Notes: generated by a model from the sequence alone, not told the origin. A stretch of DNA of 14,529 nucleotides from Candidatus Hodarchaeota archaeon (GCA_016839785.1 JAEOTQ010000122.1:1-14529), one strand, 5' to 3'. Numbered from the stretch's first letter, positions 5,543 through 14,529 are shown. Numbers and translations: made by a program.

Positions 5543-6304
5543 ATGAGTAATTCCCTTTTATCTGGTGGAAACCATTATGATTTGCTGATTAATTGGGACA
5601 AAAGGTTAGCCAACGAGATTCCATTTCTTACTAATGCTTTTTCTGAACATTTACCAGCTAGAAGTTCAATCTTATCGGTTGGTTGTGGAACAGGAAGGCA
5701 TCTAGAAGAATTAAGTAAATCGTTCGAGAGTACCCTGATTGGCACTGATCTTGATCCTACTATGATTGAGGAGGCTAGAAAAAGATTTCCTGAAGCTGAA
5801 CTTATCGTAGGGGATTTTCTTGATCCTAAATTATTCCAAGGGAGAAAATTTGACGCTATCTACAGTTTAGGAAATTCAATCGGTTTGATTGCAGCTTCTT
5901 CTTTATCATTTAAGCCAGTTATAAACAAGCTCAGCTCTCACCTAAAAACTTCTGGAATCTTAGTATTTCAAATATTAAATACTATGAAGGAGCGAAACGG
6001 GTGGTCATCTCCGAGAAGTGTTCGGATGTCTGAAGGTGAATATGTTTTTCTAAGAGGATTTACGACTACAGAGAATTTCATCCATCCTGAAATCGTTACT
6101 CTTTTTCGCTCTTCAGAAGTTTCTGATTACGAATTAGTTACAACAGGGAAAACTAATATTCCACGAATATCTGTACAGAAGATGAAACAATTATTGGAAG
6201 AGGCTGACTTAAATGAAATTAAAGTGTATGGCAATTATCAAAAGGATTCATTTGATGAGTTCTCTTCACCTGATATGATATTTTCATGTGAGAAATCTGG
6301 ATAG
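5543..6304 (+). CDS. Class I SAM-dependent methyltransferase (glycine/sarcosine N-methyltransferase-like)
   Basis: Motif I ILSVGCGTGRH, motif II GTDLDPTMIEEAR, VGDF, FDAIYSLGNS and LKTSGILVF. The N-terminal YDLLINWDKRLANE and the LGNS motif resemble glycine/sarcosine N-methyltransferases. Confidence 0.9.
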   Translation: MSNSLLSGGNHYDLLINWDKRLANEIPFLTNAFSEHLPARSSILSVGCGTGRHLEELSKSFESTLIGTDLDPTMIEEARKRFPEAELIVGDFLDPKLFQGRKFDAIYSLGNSIGLIAASSLSFKPVINKLSSHLKTSGILVFQILNTMKERNGWSSPRSVRMSEGEYVFLRGFTTTENFIHPEIVTLFRSSEVSDYELVTTGKTNIPRISVQKMKQLLEEADLNEIKVYGNYQKDSFDEFSSPDMIFSCEKSG

Positions 6305-7603
6305 GTGAGTACCTTCTTCGTTGTCACAAACAAAAAACTAGAAAATATTGATCCTAATCTGTCTCACATCAATTTTGCTAATTCTTGGTCTATATATTAT
6401 GATAAAGGAATTATTAATGGTAAGAATTATTTATACACTGGATCAAATAGGAATCCTTATCTCAACGAAATTTTTCTGTGTGCAAGTCCTGAAGAAATAC
6501 GGTTGGAGGAATTTTTTGATGTTTCGGACGGGTATTGCATAATACTTTTTCTAGACTGCGAAATCATTGTTCTCACCGATCGATATGGAAAAATTCCCAT
6601 TTTTTATAGTAAATCAAAAGTTAGCATTATTCTTACCACAGACCTTGATGACGACTTTTCAGAAGAATTAATACTTCTAAATCCAAATAAGTATATTTCT
6701 ATTGATTTAAACTCTGATACTATTGAATTAACGGATAAACCTCCAATCGTTGCTTATTCTCATCAAACTGATGAAGCTGGATTCATTAAACATCTCTCTA
6801 GAGAAAGTGAAACTGCTGTTATGAATTCGATCGGGAAATACCGCAATATTGGCCTTCTCTATTCTGGCGGTGTTGATTCCTCCATCATTGCGTTGATTTT
6901 GAAGAAGAATAATGTTCCTTTCACCGCGTATGTAGTTGGAGTAGCTAACTCTCCAGATGTAATTATGGCACAAAGAGCTTCTAAAATATTGGATATCGAT
7001 CTTCAAATCGTGTTAATAGATGAATATCTAGTCGAGAGAGATTTGAAGGAAATTGATGAAATCATCCAGACTAAACTATTTTCTACTACAATAACCACAG
7101 TGCCTAGAGTTGTGTCACTAGAAGTAGCTATAGTTCTTTATTTTGGAATTAAAAAAGCCTCCGAAGATGAATGTGATGTCATTTTTTCTGCAATTGGGAC
7201 TGAGGAATTCTTTATAGGATTTTCTCTTGAATCACGACACTTAGACCAGAATAGAACATTATTAGATATTACTCTTAGAAAGATGGAATCAATCTACACT
7301 CGAGATATGTATAGAAATTATCGCTTATCATCTCACTTCAACATTGGATTGAAGACCCCATTTGTTTCAACTAAACTATATGAACTTGCGTTAGCTATTC
7401 CTATAAAGCTGAAAGTTCAAAATGAGATTAAAAAGTTTATTTGGAGAAGAACTGGCCTCTCAATGGGATTACCTAAAGAAATTGCTGACAGAAAAAACAA
7501 AGCAACCCAATTTGGTAGTTCATCTAGCAAATTGATCTCTAAATTGGCTAAAAAACATGGACACAAATACAAATCTGATTTTATTTTACAATTTCTTCCA
7601 TAA
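6305..7603 (+). CDS. Asparagine synthetase B-related protein (PP-loop ATP pyrophosphatase with degenerate glutaminase domain)
   Basis: TDRYGKIPIFY (AsnB RDxxGxKPLYY), PP-loop LLYSGGVDSS, VGVANSPDV, SAIGTEEFFIGF (cf. SGxGADELFGGY), LKTPF, KFIWR and LPKEIADRKNKATQFGS. The N-terminus is MSTFF, without the Cys2 nucleophile. Confidence 0.85.
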   Translation: MSTFFVVTNKKLENIDPNLSHINFANSWSIYYDKGIINGKNYLYTGSNRNPYLNEIFLCASPEEIRLEEFFDVSDGYCIILFLDCEIIVLTDRYGKIPIFYSKSKVSIILTTDLDDDFSEELILLNPNKYISIDLNSDTIELTDKPPIVAYSHQTDEAGFIKHLSRESETAVMNSIGKYRNIGLLYSGGVDSSIIALILKKNNVPFTAYVVGVANSPDVIMAQRASKILDIDLQIVLIDEYLVERDLKEIDEIIQTKLFSTTITTVPRVVSLEVAIVLYFGIKKASEDECDVIFSAIGTEEFFIGFSLESRHLDQNRTLLDITLRKMESIYTRDMYRNYRLSSHFNIGLKTPFVSTKLYELALAIPIKLKVQNEIKKFIWRRTGLSMGLPKEIADRKNKATQFGSSSSKLISKLAKKHGHKYKSDFILQFLP

Positions 7604-7651: not shown

Positions 7652-7713
7652 AATTACGGCAAAAGTTAACGATGCGCAATGTTTATAAATGTTGAACAAC
7701 CGCAATAATCTGA

Positions 7714-7742
7714 TTTATATTATACATGCTAAATAAATTTAG
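7714..7742 (+). promoter_or_regulatory. Putative TATA box (TTTATAT 7714-7720) and downstream palindrome CTAAAT-AA-ATTTAG (7729-7742) in front of the surface-protein operon
   Basis: TATA box about 35 nt before ATG 7755. A 6-2-6 inverted repeat lies between it and the expected start site. Confidence 0.4.
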
Positions 7743-7754
7743 GGTTGTTAAAAG

Positions 7755-8621
7755 ATGAAAAAATCTGGAATTATGTTTTGTGGTTTCATTATCGGGTTTA
7801 TAATCATTCAATTTTGTATGACCAGTAATGTCTTTGCCGATGAGACTGTGTTTATAACAAGTTATTGGAATACTACTGATTATACAAGTAGCCTCGGACT
7901 GGATGATTGGAATGAAGCTGGAAGTGTTGGGTTCAGTATATCTGGTTATAAGGGTAATATTTATGTGAAAAACGACCATCAAAATCTATATTTAGGAGTT
8001 CTCATACTAGGAGAACTTAATAGTAGTGTCACCTGGAGAGTTAATTTCGACATTGACTCTGATGGCTATTGGGCTGAAGATGCGAAGGAATTAAGGGTAA
8101 TAGAGGATGGTATTAATGAGTACCAGCTTGAGATTGATGACCAACGCTATCTTCAAGGTGATCCTATTCCTTACAGTGACTCTCAACCAGACGATTTTAC
8201 CGCAAAATTGAGGAGTCTAGAATATTTTGGTGAAAATTACAGTATCTTTGAATTAACAGTGCCTCTACAATCTGATGATCTTCTCAATGATTTGCAGGTA
8301 ACAAATCCTGAAGAGAGTATAATTGGAGTCTCATTGGATGTTTTCAATGAAGATTTAGGTTTTAATGGGACATGGAAAGGAAATTCCTATCCAAATTATG
8401 CTAATTCTGTGAATTATGCACAGATTATATTTGCAGGACCTCAGGATCGACAAATTCCTATCTTTCAAGAGGAACCTCCCCTTGTTACAACAACAACGAC
8501 GGAGGATGAAGATAGAGTGCCACTAGAAGGTGGTGCAGCTGACGGGTTTGAACTATGGATTGGGTTACTTAGTATAGGATTTATATCTTACACTTTATAT
8601 TGGAGGAGGAGAAACAGTTGA
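7755..8621 (+). CDS. Secreted cell-surface protein, possible DOMON/CBM9-like beta-sandwich, with C-terminal PGF-CTERM-like sorting tail
   Basis: Signal peptide MKKSGIMFCGFIIGFIIIQFCMTSNVFA; acidic beta-rich body with IYVKNDHQNLYLGV, VNFDIDSDG and FELTVPL; TTTTT linker; DGF followed by a TM helix and RRR at the C-terminus. The fold call is tentative. Confidence 0.75.
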   Translation: MKKSGIMFCGFIIGFIIIQFCMTSNVFADETVFITSYWNTTDYTSSLGLDDWNEAGSVGFSISGYKGNIYVKNDHQNLYLGVLILGELNSSVTWRVNFDIDSDGYWAEDAKELRVIEDGINEYQLEIDDQRYLQGDPIPYSDSQPDDFTAKLRSLEYFGENYSIFELTVPLQSDDLLNDLQVTNPEESIIGVSLDVFNEDLGFNGTWKGNSYPNYANSVNYAQIIFAGPQDRQIPIFQEEPPLVTTTTTEDEDRVPLEGGAADGFELWIGLLSIGFISYTLYWRRRNS

Positions 8622-10300
8622 AAAAACAAACAATTTTTTCACTTGGAGTAATTATTCTTGTTTTTGGGTCAATCTTTCCATTATACACGACTCGTGCTTC
8701 CAATGATGATATGACTACATTTTATGGGAGTATTTATGATAATGCACTTGCGATTAGAAATCGCTATCTCCATAGTGGTTCAGGGGCGTTAAGAGAACAA
8801 ACTAGCGGTCAAATAATTAAAACCAAAACCAATTTGCTTATTGCTTCCACTTTATTAAATGAATTCAATCTTGGAGGTTCAATTGTATTTCGAGATATTG
8901 CTCAATCCATCATTCGGGCAAGTACACAATTTTTTGATGAAGCATATACCAGTGATAATGCAGGCTGGGTTAGTTATTACGATTTCTCAAAAGCTGAGAA
9001 TAGCTATGTAAAAAGCCAAAAGTTTACCCATGATCAATTTTTAATGATCCTGAGTCTTGCACTAAGTTATCCGAATTTAGCCTCTGATAATGAGTACAGA
9101 TATGATTATATTGAAGGTATATCTGAAACTTTGGGCTTTATTAATCGAAATTTACTGGGGAATGAAAATGGGTGGATTGATTCATTATTTACAGTTAATC
9201 GAACAAGTTATTCAAGAAATTACTTCCGAATAATCGAGAATGTTTGCTGGACTATCTGGACCATTCTTTCATTCCCTGGATCAATTGATTCTCCTTTTTC
9301 TACTAGCAGTATATCACAAATAATGAATTTAATTCATTCTAACGGGACATATAACGGCGCTGTATTTAATGTATTGTCTCCTGCTTGGGATTCCTCTGAC
9401 AATGTTATAAAACTTCGGACTAATGCCTTGTATGCAATCGTCAATCTCATGCTTTATGAAGAGACTAATAATACAGATTTTCTTGATCGAGGAAAAGCTG
9501 TTTTTGATTTTATTCGAATATATATGTACGATAGAGGTTTTGGAGGATTCTTTGATGTTGTAGATGAAGATGGGATGTTAGTAGTACAAAGGAAAAGTGT
9601 AATAGGGAATTCTTTGGCGTGTTTACTATCCAATAAATTACTAAAGTTTTTTCCAGCGAATAAGACATTAGAAACTACACTAGTTCGTACAAATAGATTC
9701 ATCGAAGAAAATCTTTTCGATAAAAGTTCAGGTTTGTATTATATTACAAGTGAACGAACTGGTTTGCCTTTGAAGCAGTATACTTTAATGAGTGATGTAA
9801 TTCGATTATGGCAGAGAGAAAACTCTTTACATATCATAAATGGATCGATGTTGTCAGAAGTTTCATTTGGAGAGAAGATAAAAATTGATTTACACCTTTA
9901 TAACCCCGACAACTTGAACTATACAATTTTCATTGAAGGAGAGGAAGTAAAATCACTAAATTTTACTTCAAGTGACTCTCACCATACAGTTTACTTAAAT
10001 CTAAAAGATGATGCCCGAATAGGATATTCTGATATACAGATGCATCTTAAAGTCTTATCAGGAATAATAGATCAAAGTGATTCCTTAACTATTAAAATAG
10101 GATCTGATCGACGCCTTCCACAAGGATTAGTTTATTTGATAGCTTTAGGAATCTTAGTGGGAATTGTCGTTGTCGTTCGTTATCCTCCTAGAAATCTTGA
10201 AGAGTTATTAACACGGATAAGTGCTATAAGCGCAATCGAAGAAGATTCAGGTGAATCCTCTGTAAGCGAACCGTCTCCAAATAAGGAAACCTCGAAGTGA
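8618..10300 (+). CDS. Type I membrane protein with extracellular six-hairpin (alpha/alpha)6-like domain (AGE-epimerase/GH76/YyaL-like) and a probable beta-sandwich stalk
   Basis: TTG 8618 overlaps the upstream TGA (TTGA) and follows GGAGGAGG, giving signal peptide MKKQTIFSLGVIILVFGSIFPLYTTRA. Helical-hairpin repeats LYEETNNTDFLDRGKAVFDFIRIYMYDRGFGGFFD and FIEENLFDKSSGLYY. TM segment GLVYLIALGILVGIVVVV followed by an acidic/Ser-rich tail. Confidence 0.75.
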   Translation: MKKQTIFSLGVIILVFGSIFPLYTTRASNDDMTTFYGSIYDNALAIRNRYLHSGSGALREQTSGQIIKTKTNLLIASTLLNEFNLGGSIVFRDIAQSIIRASTQFFDEAYTSDNAGWVSYYDFSKAENSYVKSQKFTHDQFLMILSLALSYPNLASDNEYRYDYIEGISETLGFINRNLLGNENGWIDSLFTVNRTSYSRNYFRIIENVCWTIWTILSFPGSIDSPFSTSSISQIMNLIHSNGTYNGAVFNVLSPAWDSSDNVIKLRTNALYAIVNLMLYEETNNTDFLDRGKAVFDFIRIYMYDRGFGGFFDVVDEDGMLVVQRKSVIGNSLACLLSNKLLKFFPANKTLETTLVRTNRFIEENLFDKSSGLYYITSERTGLPLKQYTLMSDVIRLWQRENSLHIINGSMLSEVSFGEKIKIDLHLYNPDNLNYTIFIEGEEVKSLNFTSSDSHHTVYLNLKDDARIGYSDIQMHLKVLSGIIDQSDSLTIKIGSDRRLPQGLVYLIALGILVGIVVVVRYPPRNLEELLTRISAISAIEEDSGESSVSEPSPNKETSK

Positions 10301-13300
10301 GGATTCGAAAAATGGAGAATTCAAAAGATACAATAAAATGTCCAGCCTGCAGAGCTGATATTCTTTCCCATGCAAAATTTTGTACAAAATGCGGAACAGA
10401 AATCGGGTTATGTCAGCCAGCTAGCGAACCTATTTCCCCTGACCCCCAGGAAACTAGACAGGAGGAACCTCAACCTCAAATTCCGTTTGTGAGGGAAAAA
10501 GTGGATATAATTCGAAATCTATGGATATTCTTCAGAACACATTTTTCTCAAATCTTTATCGGCGTGGGGGTATTGAGTCTTATTTCAGCGATCGCTTTTA
10601 TTCTTATCGCTTTAATTCCACAGGAATTCATAACAGATGTTGGTATTCCACCCGTAGAAGGCATTTTCTTTGACGTATTTGTAATTTTAAGTTTTATTCT
10701 AATGATTTGCAAAGAAATTACTTATTTTCTGGGGATTGTACCAAAAAAGAAGATTATCGACAAATGGTTTTCACTTATCATATTACTTCTCTTGTGGGTT
10801 AATCTAATCACTTTCGGGTTAGGTCTAGTAGAAACTAGTGTTTTTTATGATTTAGGTGGGACTTTACAACTAATATTTATTGTTTTTAGTGGAATAGACT
10901 TTACTATTGCATTCATTTATTTTGTACGGTATAGGAATCCACTTTTTTCCAGTACATTCGTGATTTCCATTATGACAATTATTTACCTTCAACAATGGAT
11001 AATCCCGGTAGAACCAGCCATATATACTGCGATAATTCTTATAGCTACAATCCTATTAATCTTAATCACTCTCATCACAAAAGATCTGATCCCCTCTATT
11101 GGAACAATGATTTTAGTTCCTATGATGCTTCTATCTCCCTATATTTTGAGTAATACATCGATTATTGCAATTTCAATTCTTTTGGGGTCATTCCCCCTTA
11201 TTGATGTTTACTTGAGTAACAGAGCGAGAAAAGAATCCTTGAATTTCAATAAAGGTCTGAGTGTTCTTTCTAATGTCTCCTGCTTATTTGGTATAATTAC
11301 TCTCGGATTTATGGTATTTTATGGGTATCTCGCAGAAGAATCATATCTCATTCTCCTTTCCACTTTAATATTGGTTTTATTACTTTTAAAAATGCGGTTT
11401 AAGCAAGCTCTCCTGTTTCCTTTTAGGGATTGGACCTTAATCTTGATTTTGATATTTTTCATTGCATTCTTTGATATGATTAGTATTGATCTAATAATTC
11501 TGACTGGGATAGCTGGAATATTAACTCTATTTGTGTCCTACAATTTTTTTGAATATACAAGCACTAAGAGACCAAACATTATCCAGTTTTCAGAATTTCT
11601 TCTTTTGACTGCGTTAGTAATCATATCAATAACAAAGATTGAATTTATTCCCAAAAGTAGTTTTTTTATCTTTCCTTTGTTAAGTTTGTTGATCTTACTC
11701 TACCGTGGAACAGATTTTGATCATTCTTCTATCAGATTATTTGTTTTTGGGTTTATATCCTTATTCATTCTAAGTTTTTTACTGCATCCCTCATATGATT
11801 GGATCTCAATCCCCATTTTCTCATTGATCGCGTTGGAAGGAACCTTATGCGTTACAATTTTCCATGAGATGGGAGAAAATGTAAGTTTTCATATTGATTT
11901 AAGTATTGTAACAATTTTATTAGAAATAGACTTACTTGTCCTAATGTTGGGAACGACAACAGCATTAGAAATGATATATCCTGTAATAATGCTCATTATT
12001 GTCATGTTACTGATTTGTGGAATTCAAGTGAGGAAACCTCTCAAAGAGAATTTCGTCTGGGTAAATTCGACTTATCTCATCACCTTTGGCCTAATGACGT
12101 ATTGGAACGAATTTGAGCCGATTTTAACGTTAATAATAGTTTTCATGACTTTAATTCCTCTGGTTTTAGAAAAACTTACCTTCAAGAAGATAGATGTTCG
12201 GGCACAATTAGAAAGAGCAAATCAGTCACATAATTTCAATATAGCGTTAACCGCGGTTGGGTTAACCCTTGTTATCCTTTTTGAAGAACTTAATCCAGTG
12301 AGTCATGCAATTTTACTTCTTCTGGGGCCTATTGTCTGGATTGTCGTATCCCTCAGAAATAAAATCGATAATTCTACAAATTTGTTGTTAATTGTAATTT
12401 CTCCAGGGATTATCTATTTATTTGAGTTGATTATCCATACTACAATCTTCACGCCTGTTACCGAGGTAATCTACTTATATTCAACATTGATCGTGATTGC
12501 AACTCCTGCGATTCTGCTTCAAAGTATAAAATTCTTCAAAAAAGGGAGTTTGACAGAAAGTAGAGTCAATCCCTTTATTATGATGACTGTTATCTATAGC
12601 GTCTTGATAACTTATTCTACATGGATTTACGAGCTTGATGTAGAGACTGTATCGCTTTTATACCTCGTCTTATTGGTAATTATCGTTATCTCATCATTCC
12701 TGATTACTTGGCAATATGAATCAACATTACTTGTGATAACTACGTTTTTACCCTCAGTAATGTTTTCTTATGATGTAGATTTTCCCCAATTGGTTTTATA
12801 CATATTACCCATAATCCCACTTTGTTTTAATATTGGTATAGCCTTCAAACGAATGAAATCTGTCCTTGCTGTAAAGCTTCATGAAACTCTAATGGTTATA
12901 TACCTGATCTTCTTCATTCTCATGTATCCTGTTAAAATACTTGAGTATACGATATTTCTTGCAACACTACTCCTAATTTCATGGCAAATTCTTGGAACAT
13001 TAAATCGAAAATTAGACTCTAGTCTTTTAGAAATCACTAGTTTTCTCAACACAATTTTGGTTCTAACTCTCGCAATCTTTATCGATTCTTATCTTCCAGA
13101 AACTATTCTTGTTGAGGGAAATATCATTTTGAACTTGAATGCCATTTTTCTCTTTCTTTCTTGTTTAATAATTGCTCTTTCAACTATTTTAGGTATTATT
13201 TATTGGCAGGTCAAACATGAATCGGTGAAACTCCCGATACTATTATCTGGATCCTTGGTGGCTAATTTCTTATCTTTACTTCTGGTTATAGTATCCCTAT

Positions 13301-13728
13301 TACTCCGGACAACAGATCTCACCCTTGTTGAGATTGCTCTTGGATTCTTAATTATCTCGAGTAGTTTACTATTCCTCGGTCTATTAACAAACTTCCGATT
13401 TACTAGATTAAATTCAGAGATAATTTCAAGTATAGCTATCTCCACTTCTCTCTGGGTTTTGATTACATCCACATTTTTCCATAATATTGAAGTTATTTTC
13501 CTTTGGATACTATTTGCACCCATTTTGGTTGCTCATTATTTACATAAAAAGGAATTTAGTTATCTCTCCGTTGGAATAGTATTCTATACTCTTACAAGCA
13601 TACGATTACTAGAAATTATCCTAGATTCGCTACAAACAGGAATCACAAATTGGCTAGGAATCTTAGGTTTAGTCCTTCTCGGAGTAGAGCTGCTATCAAT
13701 TGGGATTTATACCGTAATGGAAAGTTAA
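10297..13728 (+). CDS. Very large polytopic membrane protein with N-terminal zinc ribbon
   Basis: CPAC-x10-CTKC (10339-10392), then a Pro/Gln/Glu-rich linker, then about 1,050 aa of near-continuous hydrophobic helices (roughly 30-40 TMs by eye). Start is GTG 10297 (GTGA overlap) or ATG 10312 after GAGGA. Confidence 0.85.
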   Translation: MRIRKMENSKDTIKCPACRADILSHAKFCTKCGTEIGLCQPASEPISPDPQETRQEEPQPQIPFVREKVDIIRNLWIFFRTHFSQIFIGVGVLSLISAIAFILIALIPQEFITDVGIPPVEGIFFDVFVILSFILMICKEITYFLGIVPKKKIIDKWFSLIILLLLWVNLITFGLGLVETSVFYDLGGTLQLIFIVFSGIDFTIAFIYFVRYRNPLFSSTFVISIMTIIYLQQWIIPVEPAIYTAIILIATILLILITLITKDLIPSIGTMILVPMMLLSPYILSNTSIIAISILLGSFPLIDVYLSNRARKESLNFNKGLSVLSNVSCLFGIITLGFMVFYGYLAEESYLILLSTLILVLLLLKMRFKQALLFPFRDWTLILILIFFIAFFDMISIDLIILTGIAGILTLFVSYNFFEYTSTKRPNIIQFSEFLLLTALVIISITKIEFIPKSSFFIFPLLSLLILLYRGTDFDHSSIRLFVFGFISLFILSFLLHPSYDWISIPIFSLIALEGTLCVTIFHEMGENVSFHIDLSIVTILLEIDLLVLMLGTTTALEMIYPVIMLIIVMLLICGIQVRKPLKENFVWVNSTYLITFGLMTYWNEFEPILTLIIVFMTLIPLVLEKLTFKKIDVRAQLERANQSHNFNIALTAVGLTLVILFEELNPVSHAILLLLGPIVWIVVSLRNKIDNSTNLLLIVISPGIIYLFELIIHTTIFTPVTEVIYLYSTLIVIATPAILLQSIKFFKKGSLTESRVNPFIMMTVIYSVLITYSTWIYELDVETVSLLYLVLLVIIVISSFLITWQYESTLLVITTFLPSVMFSYDVDFPQLVLYILPIIPLCFNIGIAFKRMKSVLAVKLHETLMVIYLIFFILMYPVKILEYTIFLATLLLISWQILGTLNRKLDSSLLEITSFLNTILVLTLAIFIDSYLPETILVEGNIILNLNAIFLFLSCLIIALSTILGIIYWQVKHESVKLPILLSGSLVANFLSLLLVIVSLLLRTTDLTLVEIALGFLIISSSLLFLGLLTNFRFTRLNSEIISSIAISTSLWVLITSTFFHNIEVIFLWILFAPILVAHYLHKKEFSYLSVGIVFYTLTSIRLLEIILDSLQTGITNWLGILGLVLLGVELLSIGIYTVMES

Positions 13729-13843
13729 GCACTTTCGAACTGCATAATACCTTAGAGGACAGAAGTGGGTGGATTTATTATACATCCTAAGATGTAACAA
13801 TTCTACCTTTAATCTCGTCCTTATGCAAAGATAGCTGATTAAA

Positions 13844-14529
13844 ATGCCAGATAAATTTCAAAATAGACTTGATCCGACGGGTGAGCCAATACTAACGTTT
13901 ATAAATGCTATTTGTGATGAGGTAGGGCCGAGAATCAGTGGTTCTGAGGCAGAAAAAAAAGCAGGAGAAATTATTTACAACCAAATGGCTGGTTTTTGTG
14001 ATTCTGTTGAGAAGGAATACTTTTCTTGTAGACCTGGGGGATTTCTTGATTTCATCAAAATCACAGCACTCTTTTACTATATTGGTATTTTCTTTTATTT
14101 CTTTTACCCAATTCTCACTTCACTATTTCTATTCATGGGTCTAGCGATTTATTTCTTACAGCAGATTCTTTTGTATGAAGTAGTAGATTTTCTTTTCCCT
14201 GAAATATCAACCTTCCATGTTGTGGGGAAAATTAAACCAAAAAACCCCCCTAAGAAACTAGTTTTACTTTCAGGTCATCACGATTCGGCATACGAGTTTC
14301 CTCTCTTTGGGAAATTAGGAGAAAGATCAGCTTACCTTATTGTATTTACAGTAGTAATTGTGCTTATTAATTTTATAATAAGTCTGCTAAAAGCGTTTAT
14401 TCCAAACCAGGAGTTATTTCTGATCTTAGATCCAGCCCAAATTGCGTTCTCGTTTCTGGGAATAGTATTCGTTACAATTATCACTCTCTTTCTTAGGTCA
14501 AACAAGATAGTGATGGGAGCAAATGACAA
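13844..14529 (+). CDS. Membrane-embedded M28-family (M20/M28 clan) metallopeptidase, 3'-truncated by window edge; absent from ORF track
   Basis: Hand translation from ATG 13844 stays open to the window end: MPDKFQNRLD...ICDEVGPRISGSEAEKKAGEII...VVGKIKPKNPPKKLVLLSGHHDSAYEF...KIVMGAND. GPRxxGS, GHxDS and GAND(N) are M28 motifs. Hydrophobic hairpins are inserted before and after the HxD motif. Confidence 0.88.
   Translation, partial: MPDKFQNRLDPTGEPILTFINAICDEVGPRISGSEAEKKAGEIIYNQMAGFCDSVEKEYFSCRPGGFLDFIKITALFYYIGIFFYFFYPILTSLFLFMGLAIYFLQQILLYEVVDFLFPEISTFHVVGKIKPKNPPKKLVLLSGHHDSAYEFPLFGKLGERSAYLIVFTVVIVLINFIISLLKAFIPNQELFLILDPAQIAFSFLGIVFVTIITLFLRSNKIVMGAND

Follow-up and report, generated by a model that had tools for sequence, protein, structure and literature searches.

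What is encoded by three adjacent genes, here called A, B and C, that occupy positions 7755 to 13728 of a contig from Candidatus Hodarchaeota archaeon (GCA_016839785.1, JAEOTQ010000122.1), and do their products work together at the cell surface? The stretch examined, referred to below as the window, is one whole contig (C77) of 14,529 bases from a genome (G000) of 4.04 Mb that is 84.5 % complete. The names on the closest database proteins and the records place it in the Hodarchaeales/Heimdall group of the Asgard archaea. No archaea are placed closer to eukaryotes than the Hodarchaeales and their kin, and next to nothing is known of their cell surface. All of the large open reading frames (ORFs) in the window lie on the + strand, and the 15 sequencing runs listed for the stretch are all DNA-type sediment metagenomes.

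The comparisons reported here identify A, B and C as a real, conserved and previously undescribed three-protein surface/membrane unit that is restricted to Heimdallarchaeia, and we refer to this unit as the module. We give an even chance to the reading that the three proteins form one lineage-specific Heimdallarchaeia surface complex, in which a glycan-binding or glycan-processing head made of A and B stands on a membrane mount formed by C. The module would add a defined, testable surface complex to the Hodarchaeales. A preliminary description of the window, made from the sequence alone, had grouped the three genes with a fourth one, for a membrane peptidase, and had proposed that the products bind or process a glycan or glycopeptide outside the cell and couple this to transport, export or signalling. 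Its observations were confirmed in part, and its interpretation was likewise supported in part.

Conservation and linkage of A, B and C

The 11 proteins of the window were compared with 11 fetched loci using tblastn. A, B and C are adjacent and co-oriented in six genomes (G002, G011, G010, G008, G012 and G021), and loci that are cut by the end of a contig retain the expected parts, namely A and B in G019 and G015, and B and C in G013. The genes flanking the module vary between subclades. The three genes form a linked unit that is inherited together and is adjacent in every locus that could be assessed, and the Asgard homologues are not scattered without linkage. A, B and C are a conserved, co-inherited unit.

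Among the 22 genomes of the genus, A was found in 10. The same 10 carry full-length B, and nine have the membrane body of C. The sole genome with A and B but no C is G019, where the contig ends inside B. None of A, B and C was found in the other 12 genomes (70-94 % complete), and in two of these the only match is short, local and to a hairpin of an unrelated protein of 800 amino acids (aa). When 400 Asgard genomes were scanned, full-length B-like genes outside the genus were found only in G023, which belongs to another family of the order, and in G085, which belongs to another family of the class. The remaining 12 matches to the B profile are local, covering 54-213 profile positions; two are in 800 aa proteins of two genus genomes and 10 are in proteins of 600-2500 aa from nine genomes elsewhere in the phylum. 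In both G085 and G023, an A-like gene lies before the B-like gene (hhalign probability 98 %, E 5.6e-14 in G085; 25 % identity in the alignment in G023), and a gene for a giant protein with a Zn ribbon and 38-39 hydropathy peaks follows it. The sizes of the trio are 295/537/1100 aa in G085 and 313/628/1241 aa in G023. A wider search of genome contigs for related loci recovered nine, all labelled Heimdall-, Hod-, Hermod- or Promethearchaeota.

Between subclades the proteins are 37-48 % identical and the gene order is kept, which looks like vertical descent with loss. This bears on the possibility that the module is an accessory surface system for defence or virus exclusion. Its patchy distribution in the genus, the fast evolution of C between lineages and one of the weaker fold matches of B, to an archaeal virus tail protein (7xdi_F), would all fit such a role. 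However, A, B and C are all without a PADLOC match, no conserved integrase or mobile-element genes were found in the flanks, which differ between clades, and the combination of subclade identity and kept order speaks for vertical inheritance. We regard a defence role as highly improbable.

A candidate for a conserved fourth gene was rejected. ORFs of 343-351 aa are found downstream of the module in one subclade and do not match the neighbour in G085. They gave no Pfam family over the cut-off and one weak, sub-threshold match to DUF5752.

Gene boundaries and junctions

Gene A (7755..8621, + strand) encodes 288 aa comprising a signal peptide (residues ~1-29), a beta-rich ectodomain with an invariant DxDxDG-like acidic loop (residues 97-111), a Thr-rich stalk and a C-terminal anchor. 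Gene B (8618..10300, + strand) encodes 560 aa from a TTG at 8618, with a signal peptide or N-terminal helix, an (alpha/alpha)6 barrel, a beta-sandwich, a transmembrane (TM) anchor, a conserved cytoplasmic helix and an acidic tail. Gene C (10312..13728, + strand) encodes 1138 aa from an ATG at 10312 (1143 aa from a GTG at 10297), with a Zn ribbon and 38 TM helices. Including the alternative starts, the ORFs extend over 7755-8621 (A), 8600/8618-10300 (B) and 10297/10312-13728 (C), and the residues of B given below are numbered from the alternative upstream TTG at 8600.

The three co-oriented ORFs are found as first described, and so is the 4 nt overlap (TTGA, 8618-8621) of the start of B with the stop of A. 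The TTG at 8618, not the upstream TTG at 8600, is the likely start of B, because homologues begin at the aligned residue and because a putative Shine-Dalgarno-like run, GGAGGAGG (8602..8609, + strand), lies 8 nt 5' of it, inside the end of gene A. A second overlap, between B and C, had been placed at the tetranucleotide GTGA (10297-10300). This tetranucleotide is present, but C more likely starts at the ATG at 10312, which leaves a gap of 11 nt, because Met6 is invariant in nine of nine homologues, a 98 % identical database protein is 1138 aa long and GAGGA is found 8 nt upstream. Under either start, B and C are separated by no more than 11 nt. The A/B overlap of 4 nt recurs in L014, L016, L017 and L055 as well as in the window. 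At the level of gene arrangement, A, B and C are translationally coupled. Their products and that of the fourth gene each carry hydrophobic signal or TM segments, in agreement with the earlier view that all four are exported or membrane-bound.

Protein A

From its N-terminus on, the sequence of protein A looks like a signal peptide followed by an ectodomain of ~215 residues, after which come a Thr-rich stretch, the motif G-A-A-x-x-F-E, a hydrophobic helix and an Arg cluster. The 21 homologues found, together with A from the window, make up a family of 22 (alignment A4). A loop with the pattern N-F-D-x-D-x-D-G-x-W-x-E-D (residues 97-109) is invariant and resembles a calcium-binding DxDxDG loop.

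Heimdall-CTERM surface proteins (NF045529) are laid out alike, with a signal peptide, a Thr-rich stalk, a short motif, a TM segment and an Arg cluster. The sorting-signal-like tail of A (8544..8618, + strand), with the motif GAADGFE, a TM helix and RRR, differs from these in that it scores below the cut-off of 24 bits (15.4 bits in NCBIfam or 19.7 bits in the genome scan). Of the 22 proteins in the family, 12 are hit by NF045529 at E<=1, the best at 8.3e-6, and the tripartite pattern of AA-x-x-F-E, TM segment and basic residues is conserved across alignment A4. A is predicted to be secreted and tethered by the Thr-rich stalk and a weak Heimdall-CTERM-like C-terminal anchor. The literature search found no paper for the term Heimdall-CTERM.

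The tail raises the question of whether B and C could be the missing sorting machinery for Heimdall-CTERM proteins, with A as a substrate. A search of G000 (84.5 % complete) for an archaeosortase (PF09721) was negative, which would be consistent with another machinery. However, G000 has a single module but 32 Heimdall-CTERM tails at E<=0.01, of which 17 exceed the cut-off, and five genus genomes that lack A, B and C each have 8-17 Heimdall-CTERM matches. In addition, the predicted interface between A and B described below uses the folded domain of A (the tail was not in the prediction). As the five module-less genomes keep their tails, a sorting function for B and C was rejected as extremely improbable.

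The ectodomain of A had been labelled as a CBM9/DOMON sandwich (PF06452, PF09459). None of the 22 members matches CBM9, DOMON or EB_dh at E<=1, and gene A was not matched in genome-wide scans with CBM9_1 and EB_dh. No family model matches, and the label is left with a language-model lead of 0.87-0.89, below 0.9. It is unsupported and should be dropped from the description of A.

Protein B

B is predicted to be a type-I membrane protein. In an AlphaFold2 model (27-sequence alignment, pLDDT 78.7, pTM 0.78), an N-terminal helix precedes the twelve helices of the barrel (residues 42-407). Next come a beta-sandwich (411-501) and, past the TM helix (508-527), a short helix on the cytoplasmic side and an acidic, disordered tail. 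The N-terminal helix is probably a cleaved signal ending TRA/SN. The (alpha/alpha)6 barrel (8723..9820, + strand) is supported by VIA-align and the PDB profile, the membrane-proximal beta-sandwich (9830..10102, + strand) by strands at pLDDT ~90 in the model, and the juxtamembrane motif and TM anchor (10103..10189, + strand) by invariant columns, hydropathy and the model. In the 27 aligned sequences, G501, S502, D503, R504, P507 and G509 before the TM helix and R527, Y528, P529 and P530 after it are invariant. This TM-flanking segment is unusually conserved in the genus, partly kept in G023 and not kept in G085.

The barrel matches AGE-superfamily enzymes with VIA-align Z 30-32 and a root-mean-square deviation of 3.1-3.7 A over 341-361 residues. 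The closest folds are those of mannose isomerase (5x32), cellobiose 2-epimerases, YihS and N-acylglucosamine 2-epimerases, followed at Z 21-23 by GH76, GH15, GH88/105, terpene cyclases and others. Foldseek agrees on the barrel (E 3e-8). When the B family profile was compared with the PDB, cellobiose 2-epimerase 5zig (E 1.1e-6) and GH76 mannanases (E 3.2e-5 to 4e-4) were found, with matches to single hairpins only. The model, the fold matches and the PDB profile bear out the earlier recognition of B as six-hairpin-like.

B from the window matches no Pfam family at E<=0.1 and hence falls below the cut-off of PF07221 (GlcNAc_2-epim), and an NCBIfam match, to CE, is at E 0.052. The B-like protein of G085 passes Pfam GlcNAc_2-epim (26.6 vs 23.4 bits) and C5-epim_C (27.2 vs 23.3 bits). 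For GH76 (PF03663), B from the window has no match and the B-like protein of G023 scores 16 bits against a cut-off of 25.9. GH76 enzymes have a catalytic Asp-Asp pair. An invariant D194-S195 is present in B.

The invariant residues of B include D119, D128, W192, D194, N207, E213, W217, W220, D267, N275, D311, D319, K332, N337, R402 and Q405. These are located on the loops that lead into the six inner helices and at the N-termini of those helices.

Several observations on six-hairpin proteins were made in passing. The weaker Foldseek matches of B include the archaeal virus tail protein 7xdi_F. In the same genome, locus L058 (G000:C89, 938-4875, minus strand) contains a 478 aa multihaem cytochrome with MtrC/MtrF-like and cytochrome c7 domains and a Heimdall-CTERM tail, then a 744 aa GH76/AGE/GH88-like six-hairpin protein and then a cytochrome c assembly protein, and is thus a second Heimdall-CTERM/six-hairpin pairing in G000. 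In G001:C4, a Heimdall-CTERM tail is ~1 kb from an 800 aa six-hairpin-like gene. Locus L059 (G000:C108, 1875-3965) encodes a 696 aa Thioredox_DsbH (DUF255) and AGE-like protein beside a PIG-L family deacetylase and an EamA transporter; this is an ordinary YyaL-type protein, unrelated to the module.

Predicted complex of A and B

The ectodomains of B (residues 33-505) and A (residues 29-245) were submitted to complex prediction, each with its own alignment and with the tail of A excluded. Three runs gave ipSAE values of 0.87, 0.89 and 0.90, and the controls gave 0.00, 0.00 and 0.01. The ipSAE mark is reached by 116 of 157 solved complexes and by two of 215 mismatched pairs, rates that apply only approximately here because the alignments were our own. 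The runs have at least 91 % of contacts in common, and the pLDDT of the partners is at least 82 (83-84 for A). Multimer prediction thus supports the pairing of A with B, with an ipSAE of 0.89 against 0.01 for the best control, values that express the confidence of a model and do not measure binding.

On the B side, the contacts fall in residues 72-76, 125-142, 197-214, 257-269, 319-336 and 382-397, which are the six loop regions before the inner helices. From A, the N-terminal strand (30-37), the acidic loop (100-105), residues 176-189 and a conserved GPQDR segment (229-234) take part. Invariant residues in the interface are D128, N207, E213, D267, D319, S333 and G336 of B and D103, Q181 and D231 of A. 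The prediction supports binding of A to B in a way that would cap the loop face of the barrel. In six-hairpin enzymes, the loop face before the inner helices carries the substrate or sugar site.

Protein C

C is predicted to be a membrane platform of 38 helices with both termini inside, an acidic outer face and a cytoplasmic Zn ribbon. The ribbon (C15, C18, C29 and C32; 10336..10401, + strand) scores 24.1 bits (E 3e-5) against Zn_Ribbon_1 (PF13240), for which the cut-off is 25 bits, and its four Cys are invariant in nine of nine sequences. The membrane body (10537..13719, + strand) was defined from the AlphaFold2 helices and a charge count. With the N-terminus inside, K and R number 40 in inside loops and three in outside loops, and D and E number 19 inside and 31 outside. 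Five C orthologues or analogues have 36-39 hydropathy peaks. The loops are mostly 2-15 residues long, which leaves no extramembrane domain besides the ribbon and linker. The first outer loop is acidic and contains the invariant residues D114, P118, P119, E121 and D126.

A profile made from nine C sequences was searched against 1.84 billion representative proteins and gave 1073 hits at E<=0.001. Among the best 150 of these, 11 are family members or fragments that match the membrane body or the first 120-240 positions (E<=1e-20), two are short proteins that reach positions 138-168, and the rest are confined to the first ~110 positions, namely the ribbon and linker. C has no NCBIfam or PADLOC match, and the Zn ribbon is its only Pfam match. 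The membrane bodies of the giant proteins of G023 and G085 do not align with that of C, and only the Zn ribbon does. In the giant protein of G023 (L019, 6015-9740), the Zn ribbon is C-terminal (residues 1216-1240), a permuted arrangement of the same parts. Internal repeats were sought with hhalign in 28 block-versus-block comparisons, the best of which (E 5.6e-4, 30 % probability) is unconvincing. In fold searches with the low-confidence model, the best 50 Foldseek matches in the PDB included nothing at E<=0.001 (best 1.9e-3, TM-score ~0.1), and the best of 50 from a wide VIA-align search, which does not depend on Foldseek, was to designed helical repeats at Z 12.9, below the noise level of the tool for helical proteins.

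C had been seen as a transporter, exporter or signal transducer coupled to a glycan or glycopeptide captured by A and B. The obligate linkage of an extracellular head with a very large polytopic protein would suit such a part, and the Zn ribbon, the cytoplasmic helix of B (RYPP..NLEE) and conserved polar residues in the helices of C could relay a signal. GT-C enzymes have acidic first-loop motifs, which the first outer loop of C loosely recalls. However, neither Pfam nor NCBIfam relates C to a family of transporters, GT-C enzymes, secretion proteins or sensors, the best 50 Foldseek and best 50 VIA-align matches for the model (pTM 0.50) include no fold of a transporter, channel or GT-C enzyme, and C is without sequence-detectable internal repeats or pseudo-symmetry. 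Moreover, genes for an ATPase, a kinase or a response regulator are not conserved beside the module. C itself includes no ATPase, it matches neither a transporter family nor a transporter fold, and its only extramembrane domain is the Zn ribbon; the proposed coupling through C is not supported. We consider a transport or signalling role very doubtful, because neither C nor the genes around it look like such machinery.

With 38 helices, C would rank among the largest polytopic proteins of any prokaryote. Piezo channels also have 38 helices, and no fold likeness to C was seen among the matches listed. As C has no relatives outside its family among the best 150 matches, apart from the ribbon, and no recognisable fold among the matches listed, its structure alone would be new.

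Proposed role of the complex

A glycan-binding or glycan-processing role for the A:B head is plausible, because B has the fold of sugar isomerases and glycosidases and conserved acidic and aromatic residues on the face predicted to be covered by A. In the proposed arrangement, A would be anchored outside the cell and sit as a cap over the loop face of the AGE-fold barrel of B, and the juxtamembrane/TM segment and short cytoplasmic helix of B would lie next to C. By analogy with two-domain glycosidases and lyases built of an (alpha/alpha)6 barrel and a beta-sandwich, the head may bind or process a glycan, either extracellular or on the cell surface, in a chamber that lies between toroid and sandwich. 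Asp/Glu residues would provide acid/base catalysis, in place of the His/His epimerisation of AGE enzymes. C would serve as a membrane mount or organiser and not as a known kind of transporter. We speculate that the basic S-D-R-R stretch of B is placed at the acidic outer face of C. If the predicted heterodimer is true, it would represent an unusual use of a sugar-enzyme fold, capped in trans.

Several points weigh against this reading. Firstly, a conserved His like those of AGE enzymes is absent from residues 255-295 and 385-407 of B, the ranges colinear with the fourth and sixth inner helices; His reaches at least 30 % of the 27 sequences only at columns 58, 117, 144, 214, 411 and 461. AGE enzymes have a second catalytic His, and the positions used here, H247 of CsCE and H248 of YihS, are the mutated active-site residues of PDB titles and were placed on B by colinear ranges, not residue by residue. 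Secondly, the ectodomain of A has no Pfam family and no PDB profile match (0 hits), and so no carbohydrate-binding family. Thirdly, interface residues are not significantly more conserved than the rest of the ectodomain, as 2512 of 10000 permutations for B and 2542 of 10000 for A reach the observed value, in a comparison set that includes buried core residues. Fourthly, if A plugs the pocket, the conserved pocket residues of B may serve protein-protein contact and not sugar chemistry. Fifthly, genes for glycosyltransferases, flippases or sugar nucleotides are not among the conserved neighbours of the module. Finally, the AlphaFold2 model of C is of low confidence (pLDDT 64.5, pTM 0.50).

Several of these points favour the main rival explanation, that of a structural or adhesive complex without enzymatic activity. 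In this reading the barrel of B is a socket filled by A, and the head on the C platform would serve as an envelope scaffold, a receptor for contact with other cells or partners, or a surface-layer anchor. A is predicted to lie over the whole loop face of the barrel, with many invariant residues of both proteins in the interface, and B is without the AGE histidines. Sugar-metabolism genes are not linked, C looks like an array of helical hairpins without catalytic domains, and presence in 10 of 22 genus genomes fits an accessory surface trait. However, the invariant Asp, Glu, Asn and Trp on the inner-helix loops and N-termini are typical of six-hairpin sugar sites. Furthermore, the surface-layer (S-layer) proteins of cultivated Hodarchaeales, as far as the accessible part of the source goes, differ from those of the module and are homotetrameric (bioRxiv 10.1101/2025.02.26.640444). 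We consider a purely structural complex unlikely, and prefer the reading of A and B as a glycan-binding or glycan-processing head on C.

This preferred reading can be extended to one in which the 38-helix platform, without kinship to known transporters, synthases or channels, assembles, exports or holds a surface polymer and hands it to the closed chamber formed by the B toroid and the A cap, so that the module would be an envelope machine of a new kind, confined to Heimdallarchaeia. We think this extension quite unlikely; if true, it would be a biogenesis or remodelling system confined to the archaea nearest eukaryotes.

According to the part of the same source that was available (bioRxiv 10.1101/2025.02.26.640444), two Hodarchaeales strains have been isolated, transcriptomes and proteomes exist, and one strain has an S-layer-like lattice of homotetrameric N-glycosylated proteins. 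Expression and localisation of the module are checkable because of these cultures and data sets.

Comparison with known systems

No described system with the architecture of the module was matched in family, fold, PADLOC or literature searches, in line with the preliminary description. The literature on Hodarchaeales envelopes and cultures and on Asgard surface or six-hairpin proteins, judged by titles and abstracts, contains nothing on the module, and the accessible part of a further preprint (bioRxiv 10.1101/2025.11.06.686947) has no bearing on it. Partial likenesses were seen to several known groups.

The AGE superfamily (PF07221), which includes cellobiose 2-epimerase, mannose isomerase, the sulfoquinovose isomerase YihS and N-acylglucosamine 2-epimerase, has the same barrel as B (residues 42-411). 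AGE enzymes are soluble and cytoplasmic and use a histidine pair. In contrast, B is secreted and membrane-anchored, with an N-terminal signal-like helix and a C-terminal TM segment, has an extra beta-sandwich and lacks the catalytic His. The six-hairpin fold is also common to B and the GH76 alpha-1,6-mannanases (Z 21.7), including the fungal glycosylphosphatidylinositol-anchored Dfg5/Dcw1. However, B has a protein TM anchor, dedicated partners in A and C, and no Pfam GH76 match. Dfg5 is described, in the part of the source available, as an extracellular, membrane-tethered six-hairpin protein that acts at the cell surface (PMC7902864).

The packing of toroid and sandwich in the predicted A:B complex is like that in two-domain (alpha/alpha)6 and beta-sandwich enzymes such as the GH146 beta-L-arabinofuranosidase (8k7y) and the multi-modular xanthanase (6fhn), and 8k7y, 8k7x and 6fhn are among the Foldseek matches of B. 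GH15, GH65, GH94 and PL8-type lyases are also two-domain enzymes of this kind, in which the substrate site is at or near the domain interface. The module differs in that its capping sandwich, A, is a separate and separately anchored polypeptide without a family match.

In the bacterial cellulose synthase (Bcs) set, BcsB, a TM-anchored, periplasmic, beta-rich carbohydrate-binding protein, and the (alpha/alpha)6 protein BcsZ are encoded with the polytopic BcsA. The module is alike in that beta-rich, (alpha/alpha)6 and polytopic subunits are encoded together. However, C is without GT2 or any cytoplasmic catalytic domain, and no sequence or fold relation turned up in the family and fold searches.

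Bacterial Zn-ribbon polytopic proteins (the DZR, DUF7575, DUF2157 and DUF2339 clusters) resemble C in having a Zn ribbon and many TM segments. Such clusters were nearest to C in a language-model feature search, used as a lead only (0.88-0.90; 0.80 for the DUF2339 cluster). They differ in having no hidden Markov model relation to C beyond the Zn ribbon; they are bacterial and mostly shorter, and their function is likewise unassigned.

Peptidase gene and putative promoters

The gap of 115 nt (13729-13843) between C and the fourth gene was confirmed. This gene (13844..14527, + strand) is the 5' part of a membrane M28 peptidase gene, and is truncated because the window is a whole contig and the gene runs into its end. 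The product has membrane segments by hydropathy. The 228 aa fragment ends before the peptidase domain and has no Pfam match of its own. A full-length orthologue (L027, 1486-2745; 419 aa, 55 % identical) contains Peptidase_M28 (PF04389) at residues 245-412 (E 1.1e-19). The assignment to M28 is judged from this orthologue. The gene is unlinked to the module in relatives. Of the five relatives searched, four have their M28 orthologue elsewhere, at a distance of ~457 kb from the module in the complete G010 chromosome, and G002 yielded none. In five loci, the ~6 kb that follow C contain no match to the M28 gene. By this comparison of gene positions, the M28 peptidase is not part of the module and is only a neighbour.

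A TATA-like AT-rich element, GATTTATATTATACAT (7712..7727, + strand), located ~30-40 nt upstream of the start of A, is a candidate archaeal promoter for the operon. It is unique in the window, and 0 of 200 shuffles match it. A TATA-like element that resembles it, GGATTTATTATACAT (13771-13785), is 5' of the M28 gene. The two similar AT-rich elements, which precede the starts of gene A and the M28 gene by ~30-60 nt, may represent a shared archaeal promoter motif and suggest separate transcription units.

A peptidase gene is also found near the G085 module, where a gene for an M20/M28-type peptidase (L055, 2302-3492) is 1.7 kb upstream on the opposite strand. The peptidases on the G085 side and the window side are of different families and orientations, and their joint presence may be coincidence.

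Flanking genes

The genes 5' of the module in the window encode an AMP/thymidine-phosphorylase-family protein, a Roadblock/LC7 protein, a nucleotide-sugar-dehydrogenase-like protein, a 3-TM protein, a thiolase, an S-adenosylmethionine (SAM) methyltransferase and an Asn-synthase-domain protein. The Roadblock/LC7 gene (1531-1932, + strand; PF03259, 6.6e-16) is between the phosphorylase and dehydrogenase-like genes; this family is common in Asgard archaea. The stop of the SAM methyltransferase gene (5543-6304, + strand) immediately precedes the start of the Asn-synthase (PP-loop) gene (6305-7603, + strand), which encodes 432 aa with PF00733 at residues 179-312 (2e-23) and for which no glutaminase-domain match was found in Pfam/NCBIfam. 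In the closest relative, L013, gene A follows the methyltransferase gene without a match to the 432 aa gene, which must therefore have been inserted in the window or lost in L013.

In one subclade, a divergent cluster is found just 5' of gene A (L015, 1769-4487; L016, 1752-4428; L017, 1921-4690; L022, 463-1713). It encodes a protein of 139-143 aa, a ParA/MinD-type ATPase of 270-273 aa and a protein of 473-504 aa without a Pfam family, which is present where the contig reaches it (not in L022). The whole cluster is absent from the subclade of the window.

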